From assembly GCA_964350935.1 (NCBI GenBank), contig CAYGLL010000005.1:1544-65543 (forward strand): 64,000 nt of DNA, given 5' to 3'. This DNA comes from an uncultured Candidatus Saccharibacteria bacterium. GTDB lineage: Bacteria > Patescibacteriota > Minisyncoccia > Phycocordibacterales > CAYGLL01. Position 1 is the first letter of the stretch. Each line of letters starts with the position of its first letter. Below are positions 8,032-46,994 of this stretch, one piece after another. The position numbers and the translations under genes were made by a program. The notes under the pieces are model-generated. The model was not told the origin of the DNA, made no database searches, and saw nothing but the letters and a program-made list of their open reading frames with translations.

Positions 8032-8721
8032 TTACGCGATTTTAAGAAAATTCTTCACCAGATTCATTACTTTGTGATGAATATCTTCACGCGAGAGCAT
8101 TTTCCCGCGCTCAAAACATTCAATCAATTTCCATTCGGCGCGCTTTTTTGTCATTTCCTTGTAAATGCCGATTACGGTTTCTTGATAGGCGACATTTTTT
8201 TCGTGAATATCTTTTGCGCCCTGCTTGCTCAAATACGAACGCTTTTGTTTCAGAGCAATAAGATCCGCTGAAATATGTGCGGGAACTGACAGATAAATGA
8301 CCAGATCAGGTACGGGCAAGCCCAGCTCCTCATACTCCCCTGTCTCAAGAAATTGAGTAAAGGCAGCACGTTCTCCGCGCGGAAGTTTTGCGGACTGAAA
8401 AACTAAATTGCTTGGCGTGTAGCGATCGCACACTACATTCCCTTCTTTAAGGGCCTCGTCGAGTAAACACTTCGCGCGCGCGCGATCAAGAATGTAGGGC
8501 AGCGAAGAAAGGTACGGTGAGAGCTTAAGAAAATCTCCGAACTCACCGGCAAGACAGCGACCGATCAAATTACCGAACGTTGATTTTTTGTAGCGTGGAA
8601 ATTCGAAACTTGAAACCGGACCGTACTCCTCGAGAGCGTTCGCGAGTAAGCGCGCCTGCGTCGCTTTACCCGATCCATCGGCCCCTTCGATCACAATCAG
8701 TTTCCCCTTATTTCTATACAT
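8032..8721 (-). CDS. tmk: Thymidylate (dTMP) kinase-like P-loop kinase
   Basis: 229 aa. N-terminal KLIVIEGADGSGKATQARLL matches the Tmk P-loop (IEGxxGxGK(S/T)T). DRY-like motif (CDRYTPS) present. Length fits. It sits in a dNTP-metabolism neighbourhood. Confidence 0.7.
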   Translation of the reverse strand: MYRNKGKLIVIEGADGSGKATQARLLANALEEYGPVSSFEFPRYKKSTFGNLIGRCLAGEFGDFLKLSPYLSSLPYILDRARAKCLLDEALKEGNVVCDRYTPSNLVFQSAKLPRGERAAFTQFLETGEYEELGLPVPDLVIYLSVPAHISADLIALKQKRSYLSKQGAKDIHEKNVAYQETVIGIYKEMTKKRAEWKLIECFERGKMLSREDIHHKVMNLVKNFLKIA

Positions 8722-8774
8722 ACGAGCTATTCTACTCTCTAAACAAAAAAAGCGTAAGCCCGGAGGCTTACGCT

Positions 8775-9269
8775 TTATGTATTCAAAGAACTGATAATGG
8801 GAAGGAGTTCACTCATCGACTTGATCCGAAACTGTGGAGTGTCGTGATCCGTCTCAGGCCTGAGATCCATGTATTTGCCGTAGCAAAACAGGACTGTAAC
8901 GCACCCGAGTGCATTCCCGAACCGAATCTCGCGGTCAATCCTGTCGCCAATGACGATGACTTCTTTTGGCTCGCATTTTCGCAAACGAATCTGTCGCGCA
9001 AACGCGTGACCTTTGTCTTCTGCCCGCTCACAGTAGACACATTCGTCCACAACACCTTTGGCATCGAGTCCCAAGACTTTGACCTTCTGCGTCTGGGTCA
9101 GACGGTTTCCAACGGTCACCAACACCTTTGGAAAAACAATCTGCCGTAAGGTGGGAATGGTATCCGGAAACGGCGTGATGTTCAGGAGATTTCGGTATGT
9201 CACATCCAACTGAGCATCAGTGGGAAACGCGGTATTATCCAGGTCCCAAAGACCGAGCCTAATCGCCAT
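8775..9269 (-). CDS. HAD-superfamily hydrolase (small phosphatase)
   Basis: N-terminal LWDLDNTAF matches HAD motif I (DxDxT). 164 aa. Overlaps the next gene by 11 nt, suggesting translational coupling. Confidence 0.55.
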   Translation of the reverse strand: MAIRLGLWDLDNTAFPTDAQLDVTYRNLLNITPFPDTIPTLRQIVFPKVLVTVGNRLTQTQKVKVLGLDAKGVVDECVYCERAEDKGHAFARQIRLRKCEPKEVIVIGDRIDREIRFGNALGCVTVLFCYGKYMDLRPETDHDTPQFRIKSMSELLPIISSLNT

Positions 9270-10275
9270 GGATCACCTCCATGAGAGCTTTGGCCAGTTT
9301 CACGGGATGATGCCGGACGATATCCGACTGCTGAACAAAATCGCCCGTCACAATCTTTTTCGTTACCTGCTGAAGCTCGACAACATCAACCTCGACCGGA
9401 TGGGCATTCTCGGCCGCATAGAGGGCCAGTAGCCGCTCCTCAATCCGAGCGGTGTTGCACAGCACAGCATCGAACTGATCGCGACCGATGTATGAGAGAA
9501 GCACGCGACTAAAATGCGAGGCTTTGAAGCCGAATGTCTCATTTGCCTTCGTGACAATGTTGGTGACATTGACAAGCTTGGCCTGTGTCTCCTGCATCGC
9601 CTCTTTGAAACCCTCCACCAGTGTGTTTGCACCAACAGAGCCATAGGTATCCCCTGGCGCGCAGATGATAACGTCGGCCATAGTGATTGCTTGGCGCATA
9701 TCACGCTGAATGTAAGCCTTCCGATCGAGAAAAATCCTCTTAATCGTGCGCTTATCGGTGTGTGGACGAAGATCGATTTTTTCCTCGCCTACAAGAATTT
9801 CCCCGTCGCTCAATTCAGCACACAAGTGTGCCTCATCGGTCGTCGTGTAGAGAATCCTTCCAACAACCCCAAATGCTTGTGCGAGATGATCAAGTCCGGC
9901 CTGATCATCGCCGCCACACTCGTCGCGAGCGGCAAGCGCCATAAGATTGCCGAGACTTTTACCCTGAAGACCGTTCGACTTGAACCGGTGAGCCAGCAGT
10001 TTTCGCAGGAAACCGCCTTCACGCGAACGCGCGATGATGTGCCGGCGAGAATCTCCCGGCGGTAATACTCCGTCAACGAGACGCAACTCACCTGAATGTC
10101 CACCGTTATCGAACGGCGTGCACGCAGAAGTGATCTCGAGAGCATAATCCTTTAGCCGCTCGAGCACTGCAGCCGCACCCGACCCACCCCCAATTACGAG
10201 GACTTTTTTCATTTTCGTCATATTTTCAAAGATTCCTTTCTTTCCACAATTGTTTGCCCCAGTCTCACGTACCAC
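9259..10275 (-). CDS. YvcK/CofD-family protein (gluconeogenesis factor / UPF0052-like)
   Basis: KVLVIGGGSGAAAVLERL (Rossmann-like GGGxG) plus FDNGGHSGELR resembles the YvcK/CofD DDGGSSG signature. 338 aa. Confidence 0.65.
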   Translation of the reverse strand: MVRETGANNCGKKGIFENMTKMKKVLVIGGGSGAAAVLERLKDYALEITSACTPFDNGGHSGELRLVDGVLPPGDSRRHIIARSREGGFLRKLLAHRFKSNGLQGKSLGNLMALAARDECGGDDQAGLDHLAQAFGVVGRILYTTTDEAHLCAELSDGEILVGEEKIDLRPHTDKRTIKRIFLDRKAYIQRDMRQAITMADVIICAPGDTYGSVGANTLVEGFKEAMQETQAKLVNVTNIVTKANETFGFKASHFSRVLLSYIGRDQFDAVLCNTARIEERLLALYAAENAHPVEVDVVELQQVTKKIVTGDFVQQSDIVRHHPVKLAKALMEVIHGD

Positions 10276-10662
10276 TTATAGAACTATCTACCCTTAGAAC
10301 CATTACGCTCTAAAAAGTGGTGGAGACCGACCGGCCCCCACCTTACATAAAATCACCCCTCTTTACAAGGGGTGATTTATATTTTTATTAGCGACGTAGA
10401 GCGAGCGACATTGTTTGATAAATCAAACAAGAAGTGCCCTCGTGGTATGAAATGGAGACTTCTTAGTTTCCATTTCCGAGCCGAGGTTGAGGCACGACAG
10501 CCGGCAGCGCCGAAAAACCTTGAGCGTTTTGTACTCAAAATGCGAAAGGTGTACTGCTCCTGTAAGGAGTTAACAAAGGTGGAATACCAAAGGGCATGTC
10601 CGCGCGAATGAACAAGTCTTCAAGATCCAATACTACCTCGGGGGCCCTACCCCAAGGAACCT

Positions 10663-11835
10663 TTATTTACGAAGTATGAAGTTTATTTTTTGAGCGATTT
10701 TTTTAAAGTCTGATTCTTTTTTGCCACGCGTTGTTTCGGCGGCTGCACCAAGGCGTATACCTGAAGGGTCAAACGGTGAACGCTTCTCGCCGGGGATAGT
10801 ATTCTTGTTGACGATGATCCTGGCCTTTTCAAGACGAGCTTCCGCTTCTTTCCCCGGGACCCCTTTGCCGTCCATCCAGGTATCAAGAAGTAGTAAATGT
10901 GTATCGGTGCCTCCTGAAACAACATGCCAACCGAGCGACATGAGTGTTTCTGCAAGTACCGCAGTGTTTTTCACAACTTGAGCTGCATATTTTTTGAACG
11001 ACGGCATCGCGTCTTCTTTAAGCGTAACCGCGACAGCCGCAATCTGCCCGACGTGAGGACCACCCTGAAGACCCGGAAAAACCGCTTTATCTATTTTTTT
11101 GGGAAGCTCACGCGTATCTTTTTTTGAAAAAATAATTGCCGAGCGAGGTCCGCGAAGTGTCTTGTGCGTCGTCGTCGTAACTACGTCAGCATAGGGAAAC
11201 GGCGATGGATAAGCGCCACCAGCGACAAGACCGGCAAAGTGCGACATGTCAACCATAAGAATCGATCCGGACGCATCGGCAATTTCACGAAACTTTTTAA
11301 AATCAATAATCCGCGGATAAGCGGTGTAGCCTGTAACGATAAGAGCGGGTCGTTCACGAATCGCCAACTCTTTGATGACTTTGTAATCCAAAACTTCAGT
11401 CGTGGAATCAACCTCATACACAACTTGCTTCCATGCTTTTCCGGTAAGCGAAACTTTCTGACCATGAGAGAGATGTCCGCCCGAAATAAGCGCCATCCCC
11501 ATTATTTTTCCTCCCAACGGGACAAGTCCGAGATAGACAGCAAGATTCGCATTCGCCCCTGAGAGCGCCTGGGCATTCACATGCCATTCGTTAGGAGAAA
11601 GTTTAAAAAGCTTGCGCGCGCGATCCTGCGCCAGAAGCTCTACCTGATCAACAACTTCATTACCTCCGTAGTAACGAGCTTTGGGGTACCCTTCGGAATA
11701 TTTATTATCAAACACTGAACCTAAGGCTTCAAGAACATCTTCTGAGCAATAATTTTCCGACGGAATAAGATTGATAACACTTTTCTGGCGTTTTTTTTCG
11801 GCGTTAATTAATTTTTTGATATGGGTGTCTTTCAT
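10663..11835 (-). CDS. glyA: Serine hydroxymethyltransferase
   Basis: 390 aa. LIPSENYCSEDVLEALGS, YSEGYPKARYYGGNEVVD, and the PLP-lysine region VVTTTTHKTLRGPRSA are diagnostic of SHMT. Confidence 0.92.
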   Translation of the reverse strand: MKDTHIKKLINAEKKRQKSVINLIPSENYCSEDVLEALGSVFDNKYSEGYPKARYYGGNEVVDQVELLAQDRARKLFKLSPNEWHVNAQALSGANANLAVYLGLVPLGGKIMGMALISGGHLSHGQKVSLTGKAWKQVVYEVDSTTEVLDYKVIKELAIRERPALIVTGYTAYPRIIDFKKFREIADASGSILMVDMSHFAGLVAGGAYPSPFPYADVVTTTTHKTLRGPRSAIIFSKKDTRELPKKIDKAVFPGLQGGPHVGQIAAVAVTLKEDAMPSFKKYAAQVVKNTAVLAETLMSLGWHVVSGGTDTHLLLLDTWMDGKGVPGKEAEARLEKARIIVNKNTIPGEKRSPFDPSGIRLGAAAETTRGKKESDFKKIAQKINFILRK

Positions 11836-34326: not shown

Positions 34327-35028
34327 ATGAAATTCGTATTCGTCCGTCATGGACATGCAGTATCCGCCGTTTCAGGTGCCCACCACGACCGTACACGCGA
34401 ACTGAGCAGCAAAGGCACTGCCCAAGTTCGCTCTATCGGAGAGCAATTCGGTACCCGCTTCAGCGGATCTCTCAAGCCAGCGGCCGTGTTCACTTCCCCA
34501 CTTCCTCGGACCATCAAAACCGCAGAGGTGCTCGTCGGGGGCGTAGAGAGGCTGGAGCATGTCCCCATGTTCTGTCTCCCCTCTCTCTTCTACCATCCTG
34601 ACCTTGCCAAGCACGACAAAGCCAATGCGCTTTTCGAGCGGCTCCGTTATCGGCCACTTCGAGAATATGTGGCTGAACCCGACGGCCCCCTCATGCTCGA
34701 GATTGGACACAATGCTGCCACGCAGATCCGTTCGCTGTGGGACAGTCTCGAAAAATCCGGCGATGTACTGATCGTTGGTCACGCAGTGGCACTGCCCGCA
34801 GTCATCCGCAGCTTCATGCCGACAACGGAGCTTATGGAGGAAGCCCTCGACCTTAATTTGGGAGAGGCCGACTGTGTGGTCTGGCACACTAACCCGGGAA
34901 TCCTAGAGCCAATCTCACCTAAACTCAAACAAGGAGAAGGTGAGCCGGTTCGCCACGCTGATGAGCACGTGCTGTCCAGAAGCCCTGACGGGGTCGTTCT
35001 CAAACCTGGTGCTCCAGGTCACGGTTGA
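34327..35028 (+). CDS. Histidine phosphatase superfamily protein (SixA/PGM-like)
   Basis: MKFVFVRHGHAV contains the RHG motif. A second His region lies in VLIVGHAVALPAVI. 233 aa. A terminator follows at 35053-35082. Confidence 0.6.
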   Translation: MKFVFVRHGHAVSAVSGAHHDRTRELSSKGTAQVRSIGEQFGTRFSGSLKPAAVFTSPLPRTIKTAEVLVGGVERLEHVPMFCLPSLFYHPDLAKHDKANALFERLRYRPLREYVAEPDGPLMLEIGHNAATQIRSLWDSLEKSGDVLIVGHAVALPAVIRSFMPTTELMEEALDLNLGEADCVVWHTNPGILEPISPKLKQGEGEPVRHADEHVLSRSPDGVVLKPGAPGHG

Positions 35029-35052
35029 TCAGTTCTTCGTCGGTTTCACAAC

Positions 35053-35082
35053 CACGTTCGCGAGTGCGGACGTGGTTTTTTT
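35053..35082 (+). terminator. Rho-independent terminator
   Basis: CCACGT-TCGCGAGTGCGG-ACGTGG followed by TTTTTTT. Confidence 0.55.
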
Positions 35083-36144
35083 CTATTTAATTATTCTCAC
35101 CACCCCTTTATCTGCATCAACTTCCACTGAGTCGCCTGTTTTTAAAAATCTCGTCGCATATTTTGTTCCCATGATGCAGGGTTTTTTGAGTTCGCGGGAA
35201 ACAATCGCGGCGTGACACGTAAGCCCCCCTTCATCAGTTACAATTGCAGAACATTTTTTAATTAAATGCATGAGATGTGGATTCGAATTAATTGAAACAA
35301 GAATATCCCCCTCATTAAATTCAACTCCCGCACCGTCAATACTTAAAACTACGCGCGCAACCCCCTTTGCTTTTCCCTTGTACGCAATCTGGCCTTTAAG
35401 TTCTTGCGGCATTTCAACACTCACCTGCTCCAACTTTGAAACAATCGGCGATGTATCAGAAATCCAGTTAAGCGAAGACTTCTTATTTACAACCTGAAAA
35501 ATGAACTTTTTGTTATTTTTTCTTTCTTCCAACCGTGGGGCAATACCGCTTATATCTTTTCTGAGCAACTCATCAATGGTCATAAGCTGGATAGCCTTTT
35601 CCGGATCTGCAATTCCCTGTGATTTTAAAAAGGTGGCCCCCAAAGGAACAAGAATCTGCTGCATAATCGCCGGATAGAATGAGGTCGCACGCAAATGCTC
35701 ACAGGTGGCGAGCAATTCTTTGTCATCTTTCTGTGCAGCTGTTAAACCTAAGTGTATGAAGTGCGGCAACATCGTCGAATGAAACGCGACCTTAAAAAGA
35801 AAACTGACCGCATCGGGAATATTCTCAAACGCAGATACACCTAAAGCAACTTTGTCTTCAGCGATCGTATTGAGTCGATACGCTTCGGCTAAAAGTTCTC
35901 TGCATTTAAGAGGATTTTCAACTGCCAATTTCTTTACCGAATCCTTCAAATACTGAAGTTGCTCTTCAACTCGATAATGTCGTAATACTCCCTCGTGCTC
36001 TTCTACGAAAAGCACGTCAGAAACATCCATACCGATTAGTTCGCGAACGTAGTCAGCGTACCAGCAATACCACAGAGAACATCCGAACAAATTGAATGGA
36101 CGTGTCAGATAGTGAACCCATTTTTTTGAAGTATCATATAGCAT
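35083..36144 (-). CDS. PEP-utilising-enzyme mobile (phosphohistidine swivel) domain protein lacking an ATP-binding domain (paralog 1 of 4)
   Basis: 353 aa. C-terminal ILVSINSNPHLMHLIKKCSAIVTDEGGLTCHAAIVSRELKKPCIMGTKYATRFLKTGDSVEVDADKGVVRIIK matches the PEP-utilisers mobile domain (GGxT(S/C)HAAI(V/I)(A/S)RE..P.VVG) with the catalytic His conserved. The N-terminal ~260 aa are an unrecognised helical domain. Confidence 0.7.
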   Translation of the reverse strand: MLYDTSKKWVHYLTRPFNLFGCSLWYCWYADYVRELIGMDVSDVLFVEEHEGVLRHYRVEEQLQYLKDSVKKLAVENPLKCRELLAEAYRLNTIAEDKVALGVSAFENIPDAVSFLFKVAFHSTMLPHFIHLGLTAAQKDDKELLATCEHLRATSFYPAIMQQILVPLGATFLKSQGIADPEKAIQLMTIDELLRKDISGIAPRLEERKNNKKFIFQVVNKKSSLNWISDTSPIVSKLEQVSVEMPQELKGQIAYKGKAKGVARVVLSIDGAGVEFNEGDILVSINSNPHLMHLIKKCSAIVTDEGGLTCHAAIVSRELKKPCIMGTKYATRFLKTGDSVEVDADKGVVRIIK

Positions 36145-36146
36145 AT

Positions 36147-37580
36147 TTATTTAATTATCCTCACCACCCCTTTATCCGCATCAACTTCCACCATATCGCC
36201 GTCCTTCAGGACCTTCGTGGCGATCTTGGTTCCTACAATACAAGGCTTCTTAAGTTCACGTGCAACAATCGCGGCATGTGAAGTAATTCCACCCTCATCG
36301 GTCACAAAAGCGGAAGCGATCTTCATTGCCGGCGTATAATCAGGCATTGTCGTCCGTGCGACAAGGATATTTCCTTGCTTAACCTTTCCGAGGTCTTCTT
36401 TAGAAAACACGAGTGCAATCTGGCCTGTAACCTTTCCTTTGAACGCAGGAGTACCTTTAATATTCGTATCAGTCTCCACCTTCGTCACGATCTCAACCAC
36501 TTCAGTGACGAAGTCTTCCTCGGTGATCGTCTCCGTCTCACCTTGCCGGTAATAGAATACGAACAAGCCCGTAGTTCTCTTTTTGAGAGCATCGATATCC
36601 GGCAAAACTCCCGATTCAAGATAAGCTATTACTTCGCGATTCATGAGATAAGCCATATCTTTTGCGTCCACCGATGTTCCGCTTTCCGACATAGAGCGAG
36701 CCATTTTTTGAAACAAACCGCGCACGTGGACCTGAACCTTTTTAAAAATATCCACTCGTGCTGTACGCAAGTAGATGTATTTATTAATGAACTTCGCCCC
36801 AGCTTTTAAATAAGGATCTGTTATCTCATCTCTTGTTTTTTCAAAATGCTTTTTTCCTTCCTCGATATGGGAAAGGATACTTTCTTTTTCGATCCTCGCT
36901 TGATCTGCGGTCAACGACCCAACTTCTTTCTCAAAATATGTTTCGTCCCAAAGTGTCTCTACAAAAGAATACTCTCCACCCCATGAATAGTTCTGAGCGA
37001 GATCACTAATTCGTGCCTTGCGCTCGGAAAGAGGCGCGACGGCAGTATCACATACAGCGATCCTGATCTTTTGGTAATCAATGAGCTCCGTGGGAGATGT
37101 TATGGCTGCATAGATATCTTCGTATGTCTTTGGGTATGTTCCTTGAAGTTTCGCGAGATACACCGGCGTAAAATAATCTTCAAGTACCCACGGCATCCAA
37201 GCGTATGGGGCAATTTTCGGCATGAGTGTCAGCCACATCTTATACGCAATAAGTATTTCTTTTGAATCCGTATTCGTTCTTTTTATCTTCTCGATCGTTT
37301 CCTCACGAAATTTTTCAACCGCCTCATATTCATCGATATGTTTCTGCATCGACTCAGCGTCTTTGAAGACTTCTTTCAGATATTCAAATATCCAGTCCCG
37401 ATGAGTCCTGTCGATGTAATAACCTCGATTACCATTTCCAAGCGGAACAGTAACCACTGTCGGCTTTTTATCGTTCGACAATAGACTGACAAGCGCGGCG
37501 TATTCATCACGTTGGGTCGTTGACGGTCGCGAAGCCCAAAATACTACCTTCTTAAAAAAATCAGGAATTTTTTTACTCAT
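36147..37580 (-). CDS. PEP-utilising-enzyme mobile domain protein lacking an ATP-binding domain (paralog 2 of 4)
   Basis: 477 aa. C-terminal ILVARTTMPDYTPAMKIASAFVTDEGGITSHAAIVARELKKPCIVGTKIATKVLKDGDMVEVDADKGVVRIIK. The N-terminal ~370 aa are unrecognised. The last ~45 nt of the coding sequence are almost identical to paralogs 1 and 3. Confidence 0.7.
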   Translation of the reverse strand: MSKKIPDFFKKVVFWASRPSTTQRDEYAALVSLLSNDKKPTVVTVPLGNGNRGYYIDRTHRDWIFEYLKEVFKDAESMQKHIDEYEAVEKFREETIEKIKRTNTDSKEILIAYKMWLTLMPKIAPYAWMPWVLEDYFTPVYLAKLQGTYPKTYEDIYAAITSPTELIDYQKIRIAVCDTAVAPLSERKARISDLAQNYSWGGEYSFVETLWDETYFEKEVGSLTADQARIEKESILSHIEEGKKHFEKTRDEITDPYLKAGAKFINKYIYLRTARVDIFKKVQVHVRGLFQKMARSMSESGTSVDAKDMAYLMNREVIAYLESGVLPDIDALKKRTTGLFVFYYRQGETETITEEDFVTEVVEIVTKVETDTNIKGTPAFKGKVTGQIALVFSKEDLGKVKQGNILVARTTMPDYTPAMKIASAFVTDEGGITSHAAIVARELKKPCIVGTKIATKVLKDGDMVEVDADKGVVRIIK

Positions 37581-39007
37581 TTGATTATCCTCACCACCCC
37601 CTTATCTGCGTCCACTTCCACCATGTCACCATCTTTTAAAATTTGAGTTGCAAATTTAGTTCCGATAACACAAGGCTTATTGATCTCTCGAGAAACGATC
37701 GCCGCATGACAAAGCATGCCTCCAATGTCGGTTATGATCGCGCCTGCCTTATGCATTAAAACCACAAAGTCGGGCGTGGTCATAGTTGAAACCAAAACAT
37801 CCCCAGTTTCCATTTTTGCAAAATCATGTGTATTCATAATAACTTTTGCTGGACCGGTATAGTGCCCTTTATTACCAACCTGACCTCGTATTTCCTTATC
37901 TGAAATATTCGCCTCTGGAATCATTAATTTTTTTAAGCGTTCAACATCTTCGGGATCCTCACTAAAGAAAACTTTCTCTCCTTTTCCCGCAAATAAAATC
38001 GTGTCCATCGCTTGTCTACACTTTGCATTATTCTTTAATGTTTCTGCGTTTACACGCCCTTTCAACGCTTCAACCACTTCAACGTCAAGTTGTAGTAGCA
38101 ATTCCTGATAAGTAAGTCCGAACTTATTTCCGATAGCTTTGAGGTATGGCTGAGCTTTTTCTGACAACATAAAGAAATACTCAGCCCCTGCCTGTCGAAT
38201 ATATCCACAGTAGCTCATACATTTTGCATGAAAGGCAAGACTTTCTGAAACAGCGGGTAACGCCTTCCTCTTCGGGGTGTGCTCATCCGTAGCATGGACA
38301 ATCTGTTCATACAACCTTTCAACAGTGAGAGGTTCGCCGACAAGATTAGCAATTTCAATCCAGGCAAACCGCTGTGCATGATCTTTAAGTTTTTGGTAAA
38401 GCTCCTCATCTTTTTTTATTTCTTCAAGCGAGCGGCCACCGACCTCTTTTTTGAGCTCTACCACTTCTCTGTGCTGTTGATTTAGCGGCGTATCAAACTT
38501 TGGAATAGTTTCGGATAACAACTCTGCCGGAAATGACTCAGCCACTGCTGCATCTGCTAATTTTTCCTGCGCATGTTCTGAAAACTGCTCCGCTCCCAAC
38601 ATCCAAAGAAACGTGATCTTTTTTCCAAGAATAAGATATTCTGAAAAAGCCTCTGCGGTTAGTTTTTTATCTTTGAACGTTTTTCCAAAAACAACTGCCT
38701 CTCTAAAATAATCGTCAGAGACTGTGACCATATTCTTAAAGAAAGCTTCATCTTTTACTTCTATCTTCTGCCTGATTTGTTTTCCTATATTCTCGATCTC
38801 TGACTTTTTAATAAAAAAATTTCCTTGCGTGAGTACTGCCGTTCCGGATTCTTCTGTTTCTATTCCAAGCCTATCTGCCACTTCCCTGCTGAAGCAATCT
38901 GCCCAAAAACATGCGGAAAATAAATTTTGCTTCCAAAGACCGAAGAAATGATACGCCTTCGGATCAAAGTTTTTTAATACGGCCGATTTAAATTCAAAAG
39001 TATTCAC
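37577..39007 (-). CDS. PEP-utilising-enzyme mobile domain protein lacking an ATP-binding domain (paralog 3 of 4)
   Basis: 476 aa. C-terminal VLVSTMTTPDFVVLMHKAGAIITDIGGMLCHAAIVSREINKPCVIGTKFATQILKDGDMVEVDADKGVVRIIK. Overlaps paralog 2's start by 4 nt. Confidence 0.7.
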   Translation of the reverse strand: MNTFEFKSAVLKNFDPKAYHFFGLWKQNLFSACFWADCFSREVADRLGIETEESGTAVLTQGNFFIKKSEIENIGKQIRQKIEVKDEAFFKNMVTVSDDYFREAVVFGKTFKDKKLTAEAFSEYLILGKKITFLWMLGAEQFSEHAQEKLADAAVAESFPAELLSETIPKFDTPLNQQHREVVELKKEVGGRSLEEIKKDEELYQKLKDHAQRFAWIEIANLVGEPLTVERLYEQIVHATDEHTPKRKALPAVSESLAFHAKCMSYCGYIRQAGAEYFFMLSEKAQPYLKAIGNKFGLTYQELLLQLDVEVVEALKGRVNAETLKNNAKCRQAMDTILFAGKGEKVFFSEDPEDVERLKKLMIPEANISDKEIRGQVGNKGHYTGPAKVIMNTHDFAKMETGDVLVSTMTTPDFVVLMHKAGAIITDIGGMLCHAAIVSREINKPCVIGTKFATQILKDGDMVEVDADKGVVRIIK

Positions 39008-39012
39008 ACTAG

Positions 39013-41031
39013 TTAGGAAATAATTTTTACAATTCCCTTCTCTGCATCCACCTCGACCATATCACCGTCTTTGAGAGCTTGTGTTGCGCTTTTAGTTCCT
39101 ACGATACAGGGTATTCTGAGCTCCCTACTTACAATTGCAGCGTGACACACCACACCACCCTCATCGGTTACAATTGCGCTGCATTTTTTCATTGCAGGGA
39201 CATAATCAGGTGAGGTTGCATACGTAACCATGACATCACCGTCCTGAATTTCATCCAGATTTAATTTTGTGAGTACTAATTTTACTTTACCCGTCACAAC
39301 TCCCGGAGAAGCGGGCATACCTTTTAATTCGGGTGTTGATTCCACGCTGCTTTTCTCTAAAACTGCGTGGGCGTTTTTTAACTCGCCTGATAACTCACTA
39401 GCGGAAATGAGCTTCGATTTTCCACCAAGGGTTGCTAACACACAACCGTTCTTTCTGTCTTTGATCTGCTTAATTTCTTTTTCTGACAAAGAATCAATTC
39501 GGTAGACTTCATCGGGCGTGAAGAGATGTGCAACCGACTGATATTGTGGGTAGTTACCATCGATAAAATCAGTGAAAATACGGTCTCCTTCATCAGAATA
39601 TTCTTGAGTTTGCTCTCTCACTTTCAAGGCTTTCTTGCGCAATTCTTCAGGCACCTCACTTCTGTCCGGAATCACAAACACGTAAGCCATTGGCGACCAC
39701 CACCGCATCCAATTAGTGTAATATTCTTTCAACTCACCAACTGTCTGAATACGCTTTTTCTTTTGAACGTACGGTAGTAACTTCTCCCAATATTGATAAA
39801 ATTGGGCAGTAACTGCATCTAAAATTTTCGGATCTTTCTTAATTGCGGAAGCGATACGATCGAAGACCATTTCTATCTCCTTAAGATCGTAATACACTTC
39901 CAATACGCCAAGCTTGTTGAAGGAAAAAAGCATGTTCCGAATGTTAGTTTCTGGAACGTGTTCGTTAAAGAAATCTCTATTCGCCTCATTCCAAACATGG
40001 GCGTAAAACAAAGAGTGCTCACGACTCATATACTTACTGAGTACTATTTCTGGGTAAGAGTTCTTTTTTGAAAGCGTGGTTATCGGGCGGCTCTGAACGA
40101 TATAAAATTTGCCGGCTTCAAAAGCCCACTCGATATCACATGGAAAACCGTAATGGTTTTCGATTTTTAAAATAATCTCAGAAAGTTCGAGGATCTGCTC
40201 TGTGGTTAAAACCTGCGATGACGCTCGCGGTTCAGGAATGTCACGCCATTCATTGTTTCCATGTTCTGCGGAACTTTTTTCAGAACGATAGAGAGCGCGT
40301 TCCTGTGTCGAAACATTTACGTCTAAAATATTCCGTGGCTCTTTCTCCACCACATAGCTATCGGGTGTTATTTGCCCCGAAACAATCGCTTCGCCTAAAC
40401 CAAAACCCGCCTCAATAATGAGCTGGTTGTAATCTTCAGTCACCGGATGAACGGAAAACGCGATACCGCTCACTTCTGACTCCACCATATTCTGAACAAC
40501 CACCGCAACCGAAATCTTTGTCGCATGTAATCCTTTCTCAAATCGATAGAAAATGGCGCGTGGGGTGAAAAGCGATGACCAACAGCGTTTAACTTTTTCC
40601 AAAAGATCCACCTTCGTCGTGTTGAGATAACTTTCCAACTGACCCGCCCAGGCATGATCCATACCATCTTCAGCGGTCGCAGAAGAACGCACCGCAACAA
40701 AAGTTGTACCTAATTTTGCAAACTGTGACTCGATATCTTTTTTAATATCTTCCGGCATCTCCCGACTTAAAATCAAACCACGAATATCTTCTGAAGCGCG
40801 ATCAACCGTGTGAATCTCTTTATGATTCACCCTGCCAAGAATCGCATCGATCTCCTGAACCAGATCGGTTTCTTCGATGAATCGCTCAAAAGAATTCGAG
40901 AGTACAACAAATCCCGGCGGAACAGGAATTCCTGCCTGAGTCATCTCACCTAAAGACGCGCCTTTACCCCCAGCAAGAGAAGCATCTCCTTTATTCAAAG
41001 CATTGAAATTGCGCGTGAGTTCAGGCGACAT
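39013..41031 (-). CDS. PEP synthase / rifampin-phosphotransferase-like enzyme: N-terminal pyruvate-phosphate-dikinase-type ATP-binding domain plus C-terminal phosphohistidine swivel domain (no PEP/pyruvate TIM-barrel domain)
   Basis: 672 aa. The N-terminus (LAGGKGASLGEMTQAGIPVPPGFVV...FVAVRSSATAEDGMDHAWAGQLESYLN...VAVVVQNMVESEVSGIAFSVHPVT...CDIEWAFEAGKFYIVQSRPITTL) matches the PPDK_N/PpsA ATP-grasp domain. The C-terminus (VMVTYATSPDYVPAMKKCSAIVTDEGGVVCHAAIVSRELRIPCIVGTKSATQALKDGDMVEVDAEKGIVKIIS) is the mobile His domain. Domain order is ATP-grasp, middle domain, swivel, as in rifampin phosphotransferase. Confidence 0.8.
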   Translation of the reverse strand: MSPELTRNFNALNKGDASLAGGKGASLGEMTQAGIPVPPGFVVLSNSFERFIEETDLVQEIDAILGRVNHKEIHTVDRASEDIRGLILSREMPEDIKKDIESQFAKLGTTFVAVRSSATAEDGMDHAWAGQLESYLNTTKVDLLEKVKRCWSSLFTPRAIFYRFEKGLHATKISVAVVVQNMVESEVSGIAFSVHPVTEDYNQLIIEAGFGLGEAIVSGQITPDSYVVEKEPRNILDVNVSTQERALYRSEKSSAEHGNNEWRDIPEPRASSQVLTTEQILELSEIILKIENHYGFPCDIEWAFEAGKFYIVQSRPITTLSKKNSYPEIVLSKYMSREHSLFYAHVWNEANRDFFNEHVPETNIRNMLFSFNKLGVLEVYYDLKEIEMVFDRIASAIKKDPKILDAVTAQFYQYWEKLLPYVQKKKRIQTVGELKEYYTNWMRWWSPMAYVFVIPDRSEVPEELRKKALKVREQTQEYSDEGDRIFTDFIDGNYPQYQSVAHLFTPDEVYRIDSLSEKEIKQIKDRKNGCVLATLGGKSKLISASELSGELKNAHAVLEKSSVESTPELKGMPASPGVVTGKVKLVLTKLNLDEIQDGDVMVTYATSPDYVPAMKKCSAIVTDEGGVVCHAAIVSRELRIPCIVGTKSATQALKDGDMVEVDAEKGIVKIIS

Positions 41032-41202
41032 AAAAAGATGTTAGTACTTAAAGTATAGCATTTGAGCCATTTCTGACATTACATCTGAATGTAGAATGAA
41101 TCTCTGACAAGATTAAGTTTTATTTCTGTATGTTGACCTCAGCAATAACTACTGGTAACCTTTTTGAGGACTCAAGGAACGACACATATAGAAAGGAATC
41201 AT

Positions 41203-41562: not shown

Positions 41563-43245
41563 TTATTCTGAAACTGTTTCCGAGGGAACTTCCTCCGACA
41601 CCACCTCAGTGGGAGTTGTTGGCTCAGTAGTTTGAGCGGGCTCAGTTTCTACAATTGTTTCAGGGGGATTTTCTGTTTCAACAGGATCTGAAGTAGAAAC
41701 CGGCGGTTCCGGAACCCCTTCAGGTTCAGCTGGCACCGAAGATGCTGGGATTTCAGAAACTGGCTCTAATTCAGGTTCATCGTTAGTGACTTCTTCTGGA
41801 AGAGTTTGCTCCTGAACATCTTCTGATTCATCAACAACTGATTGATCTGACGTTCCCGCCCCCGAGGTTCCGTGCGGTTCTTCCGGAACAATCTCTGGTG
41901 TTAGAGACTCTTCTTCTACAATCTCAGGCACCGGAGTTTCTACTACAACTTCTTCTGAAGAGGAACTCTCCGTTGAGGTTGCCGGCGACTCAACAATTGA
42001 ACTTTCTTCTACAACCACCAGTTCATCTTTCAAAACTTCCTGAACAGGCACTGCATCATTATTGTTCGCAAACCCCGGTGTCGGAATAGGGTCAATGCGC
42101 GGACCTAAACCATCAGGAATACGTGCGTATGATTTGTTCGGTGGAACAACCCCACATACCCCTCCCGCAGTCGAAGAACCGTTTGCTGTTCCCGCGGTTG
42201 GCTCATGCTCACACACGTCATGTCCGTCATAGGCAAACGTATCAGTGAGTTCGTTCTGAAGATTGTAAAGGCGAACCTCGTCGTGATCATTATCAAGAAT
42301 TGCCTTATTGAGATATACCGCGAGCCATCCGTGCGCCGGAATAGTTGTCTCACCACTATTCGTATTCACCGAACTTATGAAAACCTTATTTGAATTATCT
42401 ACGCTTCCGTCCCAAATATACCAACCATTCACATTAATTGAGGTCGATGCATTGTTGTACAACTCCACCCACTCACCCTGAGGTTTGAGACTCGCGTCAT
42501 CGCCAAAATCAAAACCAAAGGCCGAGCCTTCCGGATTGGGGAGAAACTCATTGATTACAATCTGTCGGGCACGGAAGGTGAGATGGATACGCTCCTCATC
42601 TCGATAACCACTCCCCGGAGTTTGACTGACTGATCCTCGATAAACGAGATCGACCGTACACAAATCTCCCTGAGGAATCTGTGCGGTGTTACCTGTCATC
42701 GTGAACGTGAGTGGCCAGGCGGTTTGTGACGTTGTTGTTCCGGTTGAAAGCGCGAGAAGCGGTCCTTCATACGAGAACGGATCAGACGCTGTCGATGCAA
42801 CCTGAATAAGACTACAAAATGCGTTACTTCCCCCGGTTTTCTCAGCCTTAATCGTGTACTGCAATGGAAATGCGTCCGGAACTGAAACCGCACCCGGAGA
42901 AATTAGTAAACTCGAGCCGTCTTCTGTTCCAATGTAGACATTCGTACTGTCGCCTGACTCTAGTGTGAAGTCGAGAGTTCCCGCACGAAGCGAGTTTCCC
43001 TGCGAGCGATCTATATCAATGAAGTATGAGAACGTATAACCGGCACTCTGTGTAAGAAGTGCAACGACAATGAGACAGGCAAGAATAATGCTGCCTGAGG
43101 AAACCAGTGAGCGTCTCCCTTTAGTTTCGTGAGCCGATTTCAACCGAAAAGTTTTCTGCACAAGAGAAAGGGGGCGGCGAACACGCACATCCTGAAACGG
43201 ACGCGCTCGCACCACCGCTGTCTTTTTTAATTCAATACTTCTCAT
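41563..43245 (-). CDS. Secreted lamin-tail-domain (LTD) protein with SipW-cognate-type signal peptide and acidic Glu/Pro/Thr/Ser-rich C-terminal tail
   Basis: 560 aa. After the N-terminal TM, AGYTFSYFIDIDRSQGNSLRAGTLDF resembles the SipW-cognate signal class (F(S/F)D.E.S.GN.F.AG.LD). The central IVINEFLPNPEGSAFGFDF...EWVELYNNASTSINVNGWYIWDG...IPAHGWLAVYL matches the LTD. The C-terminal ~180 aa are E/P/T/S/V-rich. Confidence 0.6.
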   Translation of the reverse strand: MRSIELKKTAVVRARPFQDVRVRRPLSLVQKTFRLKSAHETKGRRSLVSSGSIILACLIVVALLTQSAGYTFSYFIDIDRSQGNSLRAGTLDFTLESGDSTNVYIGTEDGSSLLISPGAVSVPDAFPLQYTIKAEKTGGSNAFCSLIQVASTASDPFSYEGPLLALSTGTTTSQTAWPLTFTMTGNTAQIPQGDLCTVDLVYRGSVSQTPGSGYRDEERIHLTFRARQIVINEFLPNPEGSAFGFDFGDDASLKPQGEWVELYNNASTSINVNGWYIWDGSVDNSNKVFISSVNTNSGETTIPAHGWLAVYLNKAILDNDHDEVRLYNLQNELTDTFAYDGHDVCEHEPTAGTANGSSTAGGVCGVVPPNKSYARIPDGLGPRIDPIPTPGFANNNDAVPVQEVLKDELVVVEESSIVESPATSTESSSSEEVVVETPVPEIVEEESLTPEIVPEEPHGTSGAGTSDQSVVDESEDVQEQTLPEEVTNDEPELEPVSEIPASSVPAEPEGVPEPPVSTSDPVETENPPETIVETEPAQTTEPTTPTEVVSEEVPSETVSE

Positions 43246-43802
43246 TAGTTTGTTTCGATTTCTTTACGGCGACTTCGACGCAGGTACATAACCTCACGAA
43301 CAATGCGCATACTTTCATCAACGATGATAATTCCAGCCGGAATTCCGATGAGAAGTAAAAAACCAACGGGCTGGCGCGCAAAATCCAAAATGTAACCGGC
43401 GTACGGCACGTCAAACGCAACGCGTCCGATCACCTCACGAAACGCTACCGGTGATGGATCAATTTCTTCATTTGCATCTCCTTTGGTGGTGAATTCTGTT
43501 GATTCACCTTCGCCTTCAATCGATACGATGCGGTGCGTTGTTGGAATCTGACGCTTAGTGTCTTCTCCGAATGTAATAACATCGCCCACAGCATATGAGT
43601 CGGCAGACTTAACAACAACAATTGAACCTGTGGTAATTGCCGGCTCCATTGAGCCTGATTTCACAATCTTTATTTCAATATTTCCGGGAACACGTACCAG
43701 AGAAACAAGAAATAGTCCGGCCACTGCAACAAGAACAACAATAAAGACAGCGTAGAAAAAGCTTGAGAGAAATGTGGTGAATCGTTGTAATGAAGTGTTC
43801 AT
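43245..43802 (-). CDS. Signal peptidase I, SipW/archaeal type (S26B)
   Basis: 185 aa. VKSGSMEPAITTGSIVVVK (SGSMEP catalytic Ser box), THRIV, and TKGDANEE (GDxN) boxes. N- and C-terminal TM helices as in B. subtilis SipW. Its start overlaps the LTD gene. Confidence 0.8.
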   Translation of the reverse strand: MNTSLQRFTTFLSSFFYAVFIVVLVAVAGLFLVSLVRVPGNIEIKIVKSGSMEPAITTGSIVVVKSADSYAVGDVITFGEDTKRQIPTTHRIVSIEGEGESTEFTTKGDANEEIDPSPVAFREVIGRVAFDVPYAGYILDFARQPVGFLLLIGIPAGIIIVDESMRIVREVMYLRRSRRKEIETN

Positions 43803-43820
43803 AGTATTACTTTCTAACTC

Positions 43821-44996
43821 CTACCAGCGCGACGAATGTGAATTGTTGGAATTAGTGCGGTTGTTGTTACCACCACGACTATCGCTACCACGCGACTCGC
43901 TATCATTTTCTAATGGACAGTAAACCGTATTACTTTTCTCAAATTTATTTTTCAATGTTTCGTAATTCCCTCCCGGATAGACCGCGTTGAACATACTAAT
44001 CACCTGCGCCGTCGTGTACGGATAGTCGACATCACCGCTTGCAGCATTCAAAAGTGCGGCAACCGTTTGCCGACCCAACGCATTTAATCCGCCACCGCCC
44101 TGAGCAAGAACCTGTAGCAATGTTTTCCCTGGAAAGGCATTCTTAAACACTTTCGAGAATTTTTTCGACGGTGTATACGGGGACGCCCAATCATCGAAAT
44201 GATGTGACTGCTTCCAGTAACCAGGACTGCACCCTTCCTCTTCGTTACTATTCCCTGTGCAGAGAAACTGCGGATTTTCGTTTGACGGTAACGCGCGAAT
44301 TCCCACGTCGACGGTCATAACATCGCTTTGCGCCGCATTTCCAAGCACACTTCCGTCACAGGTGAGCTTGGCCGTCTGAAGATTGACCGTAAGATTTCCG
44401 GCACACCAGTAGATACCCACGTAGCGCACCTGATTAATTCCGCACGCATTGTTGTTTTGTGAATCTCCGACTGCATACGTCGTGTTGTTCAACAAGGTTG
44501 AGGCTGCCTGATCGCCCGTGCTCCCGAAAACAGGCTTCTCATTTTTCTCGAAAACGTTATCGCCGTCGTCGATCCAGGCAAAGAATTCCATACCTTGAGC
44601 AAGTTCACCGTGTGCAAGATCACTGTCAACCTGACCCTCGGGTTCGTTGACACCGTTATCGGTGTTGGTGAGATTTTTAAAATCAAGACAAAGCCACGCA
44701 GATTTTTTCTTGATGTGCATACTGATCGTCGTCTTTCCTGAGTCTCCCGGCTTGATGTCGTTAAACTTGAAGAAACGATCGGCGGTTGGTATCAAATTCT
44801 TCAACGACCACGTTGAACCGGGAACGAGCAAACCATTGTACGTTGAGTAACTGTCGATCTTAAGATCAATCCCCTCAGTTGCAAACGTAATCCCCGGCTC
44901 AACACTGCGCGCAAGAAGAGACGCGACTAAAAGCCCGGATATGCCGAAGATGATGATGCCTCGCACCGCTATTCTTTTAATCGCGCCTGAAATCAT
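43821..44996 (-). CDS. TasA/camelysin-like secreted protein (divergent paralog)
   Basis: 391 aa. N-terminal TM then SVEPGITFATEGIDLKIDSYSTYNG, a degenerate SipW-cognate signal. Body composition and conserved blocks are similar to the two downstream paralogs (e.g. FFAWIDDGDNVFE, LTCDGS...NAAQSDVMTVDVGIRALPSNENPQFLC). Gly/Asn/Ser/Arg-rich C-terminal tail. Confidence 0.5.
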   Translation of the reverse strand: MISGAIKRIAVRGIIIFGISGLLVASLLARSVEPGITFATEGIDLKIDSYSTYNGLLVPGSTWSLKNLIPTADRFFKFNDIKPGDSGKTTISMHIKKKSAWLCLDFKNLTNTDNGVNEPEGQVDSDLAHGELAQGMEFFAWIDDGDNVFEKNEKPVFGSTGDQAASTLLNNTTYAVGDSQNNNACGINQVRYVGIYWCAGNLTVNLQTAKLTCDGSVLGNAAQSDVMTVDVGIRALPSNENPQFLCTGNSNEEEGCSPGYWKQSHHFDDWASPYTPSKKFSKVFKNAFPGKTLLQVLAQGGGGLNALGRQTVAALLNAASGDVDYPYTTAQVISMFNAVYPGGNYETLKNKFEKSNTVYCPLENDSESRGSDSRGGNNNRTNSNNSHSSRW

Positions 44997-45014
44997 ACGA
45001 ACTGAAGTACGTTT

Positions 45015-46994
45015 TTAATTTGCTGTTATTGTTGCACCATCAAGACGGAAGCTTTCGTTTCCACCATTAGAATCAGCTGAGAAACGAATAAAGAAGGTCG
45101 AGTTGTTAAGTGATGCCGGGAGATTGATTGTCTGAAGAACACTCCACGGCTCGGTTACGTTGTTATTTCCATCATCAAGCTCGTGAGATGCGAGTGCCGT
45201 CAACGTACCGGGTGCGGCACAGGTTCCGGAAGTAAAGTAACTCACAGATCCTGTTTCGTTGTCTTCTGCTTCTGTGTCTCCACGCCAGTAGTAGTTCAGT
45301 ACCAAATTACTCAAACCGGTAGCGTTCACACTGCGACACAGGTAACCATTGTTTCCTGACAAGAGACCGAAGCGTCCACCCTCAGGACTTACCGTATTGT
45401 CGCCACTTCCAGTAGCAGCTGCGACAGTGCCGTTGGTACAACTCTCACCTGCATCCTCGTCCCATCCTGGGATATCCGTAAGACACGTCCCCGTTCCAAA
45501 GTTTTCATTCAAAACTGTAGGACTTGGTGAAGGCGACGGGAGTGGAGATAGAGCGGGAATATCATCGTCATTCGTGATCGTACACGTAATTGCTTCACCT
45601 TCATCAAGAATGGCGGAACCGCCGAGAACAGCCGGGCATTTCGCACTTCCGGTAATTGAAACAAAGTGATATCCGGCGCGGCCATTTTCGTTAATGCTAT
45701 GGGGCGAGTTCGCTGAAACTGCAACTGAAGTATTGTTAGGAACAACAGCGTCATCAATTTTAAGACCCCAGGCAGAGTTTGCGGTTGCCGTACCGTTGTT
45801 ATCATTGATCACTGATTTAATGAGCGTGATATTGGCCGGGAGATCGTTGTTGGTGATGGTACAAACTTTTTCATCGCCGGGATTTAACGTAAGCTGACCT
45901 GACTCATCACAGTCACCGCTAAATGAAGCTACGTAACCCGAAACACCCGTTTCTGTAATCGTATAATTACCTTCAGCCACCAACGTTGGAACGTTTGATG
46001 TTACCGGAACTTCGTTAACACCATTATCAACAAAGAGTTGGAAGTCCGGCACGACGTTGTTTCCACCGTTGTCATTTGTCACCTCTTTGATGACCGTAAT
46101 CGTAGCCAAGCGCGGCTTCTCTCCCCCACAGAGAAAGTTAGGATTGTTGCGGGACTGAATGGCACGAAATGCAATATCGAGCGTGGCACCATCAGTCTGC
46201 GTCAGGTTATTGAGCGCAGTTCCGTCACAGGTTATCCCTGAAGCGATCGAAGGATTTACACCGCCTCCTTCGGCAACAGGACTTAGGCTCAGGTTTCCAA
46301 AGCACCATGCTTTTGCAATGTAGGTGGTTGTGTTTGCAATAACTGGTCCCGGAATGTCGGTCCAAACATTGTGTTCGCTGTCCGCAAGTGCGACTGAGAA
46401 CGGACCGGTGGTTGAGGCGAGTGCAAACAGTGTCTGAATCCCACTTGAAACTGTTTGCTCATCAGCCTCATACACATTGTCACCGTCATCCGCCCACCAG
46501 AAGAACTGGAGATTCTGCGCAAGTTCGCCGTCCCAGGTATTGTTGATGTTTTCCGGCGTATCGCCGTCAACCAATTCCGGCTCGCTTGATGAGCGATCAT
46601 CGTTTGAGGTCAAGGAAACATCCATGCATGCCCATGCATCGTTTTGAACATGGAGCGAGATCGTATCTTCACTCTCATCATCAGGCTTAAGATCAGTGAA
46701 GTTGAAAAAGAGACGGCCGTTTGAAAGATCATCTAAATTCCAGCTTGTGGTACAGGTTGTTCCAGAAACCGGATACGGGGCCGTACCAACCCACTGCCAG
46801 ACATTCTCCTCAACTTCCGTACAACGATTACCGTTGTAGTAGCTGTCGTTATCAACCTTAAGGTCGATCGATCCCGCGGCAAAGGTGTTGCCGGTTGAAG
46901 ACTCGGTGTCGCTGAAGAATGCACCGGTTGCGCCTGAGGCGATAACCGCCGCCGCTCCACCAATGAATATGAGACTTAAAATAATTCGTCGCAT
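45015..46994 (-). CDS. TasA/camelysin-like secreted protein with additional Ig-like C-terminal domains
   Basis: 659 aa. N-terminal GATGAFFSDTESSTGNTFAAGSIDLKVD is a textbook SipW-cognate signal peptide. The TasA-like core (FFNFTDLKPDDESEDTISLHVQNDAWACMDVSL...FFWWADDGDNVYE...ITCDGT) is followed by ~300 aa of beta-rich domains. Confidence 0.65.
   Translation of the reverse strand: MRRIILSLIFIGGAAAVIASGATGAFFSDTESSTGNTFAAGSIDLKVDNDSYYNGNRCTEVEENVWQWVGTAPYPVSGTTCTTSWNLDDLSNGRLFFNFTDLKPDDESEDTISLHVQNDAWACMDVSLTSNDDRSSSEPELVDGDTPENINNTWDGELAQNLQFFWWADDGDNVYEADEQTVSSGIQTLFALASTTGPFSVALADSEHNVWTDIPGPVIANTTTYIAKAWCFGNLSLSPVAEGGGVNPSIASGITCDGTALNNLTQTDGATLDIAFRAIQSRNNPNFLCGGEKPRLATITVIKEVTNDNGGNNVVPDFQLFVDNGVNEVPVTSNVPTLVAEGNYTITETGVSGYVASFSGDCDESGQLTLNPGDEKVCTITNNDLPANITLIKSVINDNNGTATANSAWGLKIDDAVVPNNTSVAVSANSPHSINENGRAGYHFVSITGSAKCPAVLGGSAILDEGEAITCTITNDDDIPALSPLPSPSPSPTVLNENFGTGTCLTDIPGWDEDAGESCTNGTVAAATGSGDNTVSPEGGRFGLLSGNNGYLCRSVNATGLSNLVLNYYWRGDTEAEDNETGSVSYFTSGTCAAPGTLTALASHELDDGNNNVTEPWSVLQTINLPASLNNSTFFIRFSADSNGGNESFRLDGATITAN

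Follow-up and report, generated by a model that had tools for sequence, protein, structure and literature searches.

One ATP-grasp domain and four swivel modules in an operon of an uncultured Candidatus Saccharibacteria bacterium: a candidate modular set of small-molecule dikinases

We analyzed a stretch of 64,000 nucleotides from an uncultured Candidatus Saccharibacteria bacterium (contig CAYGLL010000005.1, positions 1,544 to 65,543), hereafter the window, in which four minus-strand open reading frames (ORFs) at 35083-41031, designated A672, B476, C477 and D353, encode proteins that all end in the mobile phosphohistidine (swivel) domain of phosphoenolpyruvate (PEP)-utilizing enzymes. An earlier note, made from the letters of this DNA alone, had described four consecutive, co-oriented and closely spaced genes here, and their sizes and spacing were confirmed, with a 5-nt gap at the A672/B476 junction, a 4-nt overlap at B476/C477 and a 2-nt gap at C477/D353. 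The genes, their domains and the features at their boundaries are the following:

39013..41031, minus strand: A672, 672 aa, predicted three-domain dikinase with ATP-grasp, short substrate-binding domain and swivel (ORF; Pfam PPDK_N and PEP-utilizers)
40057..40980, minus strand: ATP-grasp (PPDK_N) of A672, aa 18-325 (Pfam E 4.6e-98; the match spans 2-317 of the 328 profile positions)
39250..40056, minus strand: middle (substrate-binding) domain of A672, aa 326-594, of the short class (~240 aa)
39034..39249, minus strand: swivel of A672, aa 595-666, with the His630 codon at 39142-39144 (Pfam PEP-utilizers E 8.8e-26; coordinates checked by translation)
37577..39007, minus strand: B476, 476 aa, GTG start, long substrate-binding domain (aa 1-399) and swivel (aa 400-470, nt 37598-37810; His434 codon 37706-37708), without ATP-grasp (ORF; Pfam)
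36147..37580, minus strand: C477, 477 aa, long substrate-binding domain (aa 1-400) and swivel (aa 401-471, nt 36168-36380; His435 codon 36276-36278), without ATP-grasp
35083..36144, minus strand: D353, 353 aa, short substrate-binding domain (aa 1-275) and swivel (aa 276-347, nt 35104-35319; His311 codon 35212-35214), without ATP-grasp
41052..41079, minus strand: promoter-like site (ATGTCA, 16 nt, TG-TATACT), candidate operon promoter 21 nt upstream of the A672 start (consensus scan alone)
35050..35077, no strand assigned: perfect G+C-rich hairpin of 12 bp, within the 54 nt that separate the stop codons of D353 and a convergent His_Phos_1 gene (terminator scan; spacer sequence)

Because the junctions are tight, a promoter-like site lies upstream of A672 and a hairpin follows D353, the four genes look like a single operon. 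Promoter-like sites are no commoner in this region than in shuffled sequence, so that the candidate at 41052..41079 is weak evidence. The hairpin, which is followed by a T-run on the plus strand, is likely a bidirectional terminator that would also close the operon on the minus strand. This four-gene operon is also present on an independent ENA metagenome contig.

Pfam places the PEP-utilizers domain at the C-terminus of all four proteins (E 1e-22 to 2e-27) and confirms the earlier claim that only the first gene carries PPDK_N. As the note had also stated, each copy retains the catalytic histidine (H630, H434, H435 and H311), which lies within the motif GG(V/M/I/L)x(C/S)HAAIV(S/A)RE and so in the T/SxxGGxxxH context of RPH-type and two-component dikinases. 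In the ATP-grasp of A672, the motifs GGK23GA, AVR115SSA, AGQLES, DIE301WA and VQ313SRP are all present, while no second ATP-grasp was found in B476, C477 or D353 (Pfam) or elsewhere in the 64-kb window. All four proteins end at the swivel, and none has a Pfam match to the PEP-utilizers_C TIM barrel at E up to 1. The domain order that the earlier note had likened to that of rifampin phosphotransferase (RPH) is also supported.

Membership in the known enzyme families was assessed with curated models. The best NCBIfam matches of A672 are PpsA and RPH models, all far under the curated cutoffs. The PEP synthase equivalog cutoffs were not reached (A672, 467.8 vs 598 for NF005057 and 445.4 vs 739.75 for TIGR01418; short proteins, 100-123 bits), nor were those for RPH (A672, 343.4 vs 999 for NF041857 and 248 vs 1700 for NF000283), against which the short proteins reach 42-63 bits, in matches confined to the swivel region except in C477, where part of the domain before it is included. 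Models of Enzyme I of the phosphotransferase system match the swivel region alone (27-50 bits vs cutoffs of 342-824), without a TIM barrel. For B476, matches to PpsA, RPH, PigC and similar models are restricted to the swivel and fall below cutoff; for C477 and D353, some RPH/PRK06241-type models extend into the last part of the N-terminal domain (N-domain; C477 aa 221-476), likewise below cutoff. By its structure and apparent mode of action, we file the locus with the RPH-type and two-component dikinases described below; it is not PpsA/PPDK, RPH proper or Enzyme I, since defining features of each were looked for and not found.

In RPH, an essential Arg/Glu pair of the substrate domain (R666/E667) positions the phosphohistidine for the second transfer. 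Judged by spacing only, all four proteins have an arginine within 5 residues of the corresponding position (His minus 159), the residues concerned being R472-E473 in A672, R271...E276 in B476, R275 in C477 and R152 in D353. The spacing-matched arginine is invariant in the C477 (R275) and D353 (R152) families, and E276 is conserved in the B476 family.

Nothing connects the four-gene locus with known defence systems or with viruses: none of the four proteins matched a PADLOC anti-phage defence model at E up to 0.01, and in a scan of IMG/VR, viral contigs matched the swivel alone and not C477-type modules. These matches (L086-L165) cover query residues ~342-476 and comprise many viral contigs, largely from giant-virus bins (GVMAG).

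The N-terminal domains of the three short proteins had been described as distinct, and BLAST indeed detects no similarity among the N-domains of B476, C477 and D353 and the middle domain of A672. Profile-profile comparison nevertheless reveals homology, both among the three N-domains and between them and the A672 middle domain. Among 238 modules cut out of 80 related loci, the N-domains form at least 14 communities and come in two size classes, long (about 370-400 aa) and short (about 230-245 aa). Those of B476 and C477 are long; D353 and the A672 middle domain are of the short class, and the latter groups with 18 further short N-domains, drawn from 17 loci. In hhalign comparisons, one short class aligned across positions 11-368 of the long class with a probability of 98.5%, a result that implies an inserted segment of about 130 aa. 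With the long class that includes B476 and C477, the A672 middle domain matched at 96%, and with another short class at 98%; the D353 N-domain matched the B476/C477 class at 95%. In each case, the domain N-terminal to the swivel has the fold of the RPH rifampin-binding domain (RIF-BD), and the four are strongly diverged versions of this one fold. A single-sequence search with the C477 N-domain reaches 151 representative clusters, a number from which family size cannot be gauged because the N-domains diverge fast.

Conservation within the module families is pronounced at defined positions. Across 234 aligned swivel modules from 80 loci, the catalytic histidine and the first glycine of the GG pair are invariant (234/234 each), as are the Arg-Glu residues six and seven positions after the histidine; the second glycine is retained in 232. 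Full-length homologues number in the hundreds for each of the B476, C477 and D353 families. B476 orthologues are 60-79% identical over their full length, and C477 homologues, also full-length, are 30-46% identical with R18, P19, Y204, Y268, R275, E316 and R335 invariant. The D353 family comprises more than 100 homologues of ~350 aa (invariant residues R15, W25 and R152), and an orthologue of A672 in locus L081 has 695 aa and is 50% identical. Because the histidine motif is invariant and each family has invariant N-domain residues of its own, the modules, judged by their conservation, are functional and under selection and are not decaying.

Near identity of the last ~45 nt of coding DNA in three of the copies had been taken as a sign of recent duplication or gene conversion. 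This overstates the resemblance: over the last 48 nt, identity is 87.5% for B476-C477 and for C477-D353, 79% for B476-D353 and about 65% between A672 and the others, and among B476, C477 and D353 it drops to about 65% over 216 nt, so that identity does not extend to whole genes. Counts of identical codons at identical residues were compared with the expectation from the codon usage of the window. Over all 108 swivel codons, codon identity is at chance (e.g., 22 observed vs 22.5 expected for B476-C477), which argues that the paralogs are old, with saturated synonymous sites, and that they did not arise by assembly duplication. Thus, recent duplication is contradicted both by this saturation and by the separate conservation of the families, and what stands of the earlier suggestion is a modest codon excess in the last 16 codons (C477-D353, 12/15 vs 6.0 expected, P about 0.001; B476-D353, P 0.03; B476-C477, P 0.09). 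A homogenised stretch would be at most a patch of ~45 nt.

This excess may stem from conversion over a short tract, or from selection acting on the Shine-Dalgarno (SD)-like GGTGAGGA just before the next start, in the place of which D353 has GGTGAGAA. Within the tail patch GGGGTGGTGAGGATAAT lies an SD-like GAGGA, 7-13 nt ahead of the next start (B476 to C477 and C477 to D353); in D353, after which no gene follows, the patch differs by one base (GGGGTGGTGAGAATAAT). Identical 16-residue tails are ~80 times commoner within arrays than between them (2.5% vs 0.03% of pairs). Broad gene conversion or concerted evolution of the swivels was considered and rejected: swivels of different families at the same locus share 53.6% identity on average vs 52.9% for swivels of the same family at different loci, and synonymous codons are at chance.

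When one genome per species was scanned with an alignment of the C477 family, 79 related loci were obtained, mostly from Patescibacteria lineages and DPANN archaea, with a few metagenome-assembled genomes (MAGs) that are otherwise labelled. Tandem co-oriented arrays are the rule in this set, with at least three modules in 33 of 80 loci, at least five in 17 of 80 and up to 12 in a row (L015), frequencies that are biased by sampling through similarity to C477. Genes are separated by a median of 8 nt, with overlaps in 34% of neighbouring genes. Since single arrays combine different N-domain communities, they are sets of old, diversified paralogues.

An ATP-grasp is present in 19 of the 46 multi-module loci, one each in 18 of them and two grasp-module pairs in L060; arrays of at least three modules never contain more than one. 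It stands first in the array in 10 cases, last in 6 and inside in 4. Some grasps are encoded by standalone genes of ~270-345 aa (L007, with 9 modules, L016, L037, L044, L049, L056, L064, L067, L076 and others); otherwise the grasp is fused to 1, 2, 4 or 8 modules, as in proteins of 1154 aa (L018), 1311 aa (L021), 1994 aa (L027), 2019 aa (L065) and 3761 aa (L011). Each of these five fusions has one significant grasp match, at the N-terminus, and an intact histidine in every module. Single-module fusions measure ~800 aa with B476-like or C477-like modules and ~600 aa with D353-like modules, and among 120 listed B476 homologues, ~35 are such ~800-aa proteins, in which PPDK_N is joined to a B476-like protein. 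The existence of grasp fusions to B476-, C477- and D353-like modules supports a functional linkage between grasp and module.

The largest fusions are giant uninterrupted ORFs, at 473-11758 (+) in L011 with 8 modules, at 7073-13057 in L027 with 4 and at 5565-11624 in L065 with 4; L011 and L065 are DPANN archaeal MAGs and L027 is an unclassified bacterial MAG. Apparent fusions to 'Epimerase_2' (PF02350) proved spurious: the matches are sub-threshold and lie within the swivel in P0105 or cover a short fragment of the profile in P0066 and P0009; these three and other proteins with this label are double modules.

The A672 grasp is 55-71% identical to most array-associated grasps, whatever their fusion partner. 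The most distant standalone grasps are 33-45% identical to it, those of L007, L016, L049, L064 and L076 being 36-44% identical, no closer than PpsA-like grasps (~40%). The N-domains of the modules are far more divergent than the array-associated grasps, and a conserved grasp combined with divergent N-domains is the pattern expected of a shared hub. Among the closer relatives, L085 (a 1-Mb contig) encodes a grasp 77% identical to that of A672 and fused to 2 modules, after which come a B476 orthologue (69%) and five additional swivel genes in the same tight spacing as in the window operon. L081 retains the A672-B476 pair alone, and in both loci the B476 orthologue comes after the grasp-bearing gene, while L082 has a B476 orthologue alone. 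As to the conservation that the earlier note had proposed to check, array content is therefore variable from relative to relative around a grasp that is conserved. Two ~250-aa ORFs without a Pfam match are interspersed in the seven-gene swivel array of L085 (13290-14051 and 16624-17382).

The closest functional precedents are the split dikinases phenylphosphate synthase PpsAB (Thauera), CreHI (4-methylphenol) and HpeHI (hydroxyphenylethanone kinase), which are biochemically established and were named the two-component dikinase subfamily in 2025 (PMC12167813). HpeI (ATP-grasp) and HpeH (RIF-BD-like domain and swivel) phosphorylate phenolics with AMP as a product; activity is lost with the H581Q exchange, and a stable complex between the two proteins does not form (PMC12167813). 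As in the operon, the grasp of these systems lies on one polypeptide, and the RPH-type substrate domain and the C-terminal swivel histidine (GGxx(C/S)H) lie on another. B476, C477 and D353 share the HpeH-type architecture and RPH-like fold, and the NCBIfam pattern of the short proteins is the one reported for HpeH. In contrast, the known two-component systems pair one grasp protein with one substrate protein of ~70 kDa and act on phenolics in the aromatic catabolism of free-living bacteria, whereas the operon combines one grasp with three grasp-less modules (nine or more in relatives) and has this grasp fused to a fourth module. Its modules are also smaller (353-477 aa, in two size classes), and their N-domains have no sequence match to PRK08296-type models beyond the swivel; the organisms that carry them are probably Patescibacteria or DPANN archaea.

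Other relatives are more remote. RPH itself (PDB 5FBS/5HV1; 17-18% identity) is a single polypeptide with one module. The prodigiosin ligases PigC, RedH and HapC share the three-domain order, with partial NCBIfam matches on grasp and swivel, but score 315-322 vs cutoffs of 1300-1350 and belong to pigment biosynthetic clusters, unlike the operon. PpsA and PPDK have homologous grasp and swivel domains, for which they give the best sequence matches, and share the histidine phosphocarrier chemistry; they differ in having a central swivel and a C-terminal PEP/pyruvate TIM barrel, which is absent from all four proteins, and the grasps of PpsA-like proteins reach an identity of only about 40% with that of A672, as against 55-71% for most array-associated grasps. 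The earlier note held that such an array had not been described as a functional system. The split dikinases precede it in part (PMC12167813), although in the literature searched we found no paper on one-to-many arrays (a single grasp with 3-12 modules, or eight-module megaproteins) in bacteria of the candidate phyla radiation or in DPANN archaea. The one-to-many form extends two-component dikinases beyond the one-to-one arrangement and is apparently undescribed.

We consider the best explanation of the operon to be a modular set of RPH-type small-molecule dikinases, in which the A672 grasp charges its own swivel as well as those of B476, C477 and D353 in trans and each module serves a substrate of its own (probability roughly 0.6). 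The grasp would bind ATP, and His630 of the A672 swivel would take the beta-phosphate, the gamma-phosphate leaving as inorganic phosphate (Pi) and AMP remaining; stated more broadly, the grasp would pyrophosphorylate or phosphorylate the swivel histidine, in the way known from RPH, PpsA and PPDK. Next, the swivel would swing to the middle domain and phosphorylate the small molecule bound there. By transient docking, as in HpeHI, CreHI and PpsAB, the same grasp would also charge the swivel histidines of B476, C477 and D353, and each module would pass its phosphate to its own RPH-type binding domain, so that four different small molecules might be phosphorylated at the expense of ATP, with AMP and Pi as products, a stoichiometry suggested by homology only. 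As a guess, the substrates could be scavenged metabolites or host-derived compounds in an organism of reduced metabolism. The relay of one kinase and several carriers that the earlier note proposed is thus the best comparative reading, favoured by the single-grasp arrays and by the fusion of one grasp to 1-8 modules, with charging in trans, the dikinase stoichiometry and the nature of the substrates as its inferred parts.

Several observations weigh against this reading. A672 carries a module of its own, so its grasp could serve A672 alone. Array content is fluid, C477 and D353 being without close orthologues in L085. No conserved neighbour gene hinting at a pathway was found among 343 ORFs near the arrays, where no family occurs in more than 4 loci. 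A grasp is absent from 27 of the 46 multi-module loci; 18 of these 27 run into an end of the sequence, and for nine arrays whose flanks extend 2-10 kb to either side, no ATP-grasp lies in the vicinity. In addition, the close B476 orthologue of L082 (77% identical) stands alone, with no ATP-grasp within 8 kb. Because of these nine arrays and this lone orthologue, an adjacent grasp is not obligatory, and another donor is possible.

Such a donor is central to a different account, in which the swivel-only proteins act without the A672 grasp, receiving phosphate from a grasp encoded elsewhere, from PEP via an Enzyme-I- or PpsA-like protein, or by exchange between phospho-metabolites, and in which their clustering reflects common regulation or descent. 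The grasp-free arrays and the lone L082 orthologue, without a grasp within 2-10 kb, speak for this account, as does the fact that A672 is self-sufficient on paper. Furthermore, HpeH alone moves phosphate from 4-phosphoacetophenone to acetovanillone, which also counts against charging by A672, but this exchange was reported to be very slow (PMC12167813). Against a donor elsewhere, no PEP-binding TIM barrel or HPr-like partner is seen in the operon, and no protein family recurs in more than 4 related loci. Moreover, a second grasp is never seen in arrays of at least three modules, fusion of the grasp to 2, 4 or 8 modules recurs, and B476-, C477- and D353-like modules all occur fused to a grasp of their own. 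On balance, we regard this account as unlikely.

It is far less probable that the four proteins act on or regulate other proteins, as autophosphorylating histidine-kinase-like regulators. The precedent would be VadK (Rv1127c) of M. tuberculosis, which is described as derived from PPDK, autophosphorylates, has left central carbon metabolism and interacts with methylcitrate-cycle enzymes (PMC13400623). By its description, VadK is regulatory through protein partners and has neither an RPH-type substrate domain nor a module array, whereas the N-domains studied here have the rifampin-binding-domain fold that is also that of HpeH, the substrate-binding component of a small-molecule dikinase. Each family also keeps a characteristic set of polar and aromatic invariants, which is what one would expect of ligand pockets, and no conserved protein partner is encoded nearby.

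Finally, that the short genes are ordinary PEP synthase fragments, pseudogenised remnants or an assembly or duplication artefact, as labels such as 'phosphoenolpyruvate synthase' or 'pyruvate, water dikinase' on many homologues, the best NCBIfam matches (PpsA models) and the similar 3' tails of B476, C477 and D353 might suggest, is refuted by the missing TIM barrel, the PpsA/PPDK equivalog scores far below cutoff (467.8 vs 598), the C-terminal instead of central swivel, the intact ORFs, the histidine present in 234/234 modules, the hundreds of full-length homologues per family, the ~65% DNA identity within 216 nt with codon identity at chance over the whole domain, and the independent ENA contig.

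Ultra-small symbiotic bacteria and archaea have genomes of about 1 Mb and few recognisable pathways. Related genomes spend up to about 17-20 kb on such arrays, for example on 12 genes (L015) or on the 3761-aa eight-module protein (L011). More tentatively, and with somewhat less confidence than an even chance would warrant, we suggest that Patescibacteria and DPANN archaea carry a hitherto undescribed modular dikinase platform, in which one highly conserved grasp would act as a charger for as many as a dozen substrate-specific modules in varying combinations, arranged in tandem arrays or in megaproteins of up to eight; it would enable organisms of minimal metabolism to phosphorylate irreversibly a broad range of compounds from their hosts and so trap, activate or detoxify them, and the window operon would be a four-module instance. 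Public labels, where such genes have one, read 'PEP synthase / pyruvate, water dikinase' or 'PEP-utilizing enzyme' and could mislead metabolic reconstructions with regard to gluconeogenesis, an annotation that the reading as RPH-type dikinase modules corrects. This reading also extends the two-component dikinase subfamily from one-to-one to one-to-many and describes a directly testable biochemical system, with one charger, several acceptors and an invariant histidine. The substrates could show what such organisms take from their hosts, and the modules could provide a natural scaffold for engineering the ATP-driven phosphorylation of diverse small molecules.

Hints at these substrates come from individual loci. 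In L081 (443-5415 and 12627-14030), the A672-B476 pair lies directly downstream of a thymidylate (dTMP) and folate cluster encoding DHFR, dUTPase/DCD, ThyA, dCMP deaminase, thymidylate kinase and SHMT; a bAvd and reverse-transcriptase pair, typical of diversity-generating retroelements, lies ~3 kb from it. In L082 (2996-9437) and L083 (33-6474), a lone B476 orthologue follows directly after genes for MarR, two membrane-fusion-like proteins and a major facilitator superfamily (MFS) transporter, a drug-efflux-like context that, for L082, might hint at a xenobiotic substrate. Two proteins with D353-like modules carry a C-terminal NUDIX domain (P0184, 39.4 bits) or HD domain (P0219, 26.1 bits, with weak similarity to YfbR-like 5'-deoxynucleotidases). 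Nucleotide substrates were considered on the basis of these two fusions and rejected as an inference, since the matches are above threshold but come from one contig each, which is too thin. Taken together, the L081 cluster, the L082 context and the NUDIX and HD fusions are isolated and not enough to assign a substrate.

The convergent gene at the end of the operon (34327-35028, plus strand) encodes a member of the histidine-phosphatase superfamily (His_Phos_1, 37.8 bits, with an RHG motif), and a faint His_Phos_1 gene flanks the related array of L084/L085 (2675-3350, minus strand). As a conserved partner phosphatase it was rejected, with one marginal match among the ORFs of L002-L080 (L026, E 7e-4, 16 bits); it could be an occasional product phosphatase or mere synteny between relatives. 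Directly upstream of the operon, on the minus strand at 41563-46994, lie genes for a lamin-tail-domain (LTD) protein of 560 aa whose long acidic tail is rich in Pro, Glu and Thr, for a 185-aa protein and for two large proteins of 391 and 659 aa, both with N-terminal hydrophobic anchors. By eye, these genes resemble those for a SipW-type signal peptidase and its secreted substrates.

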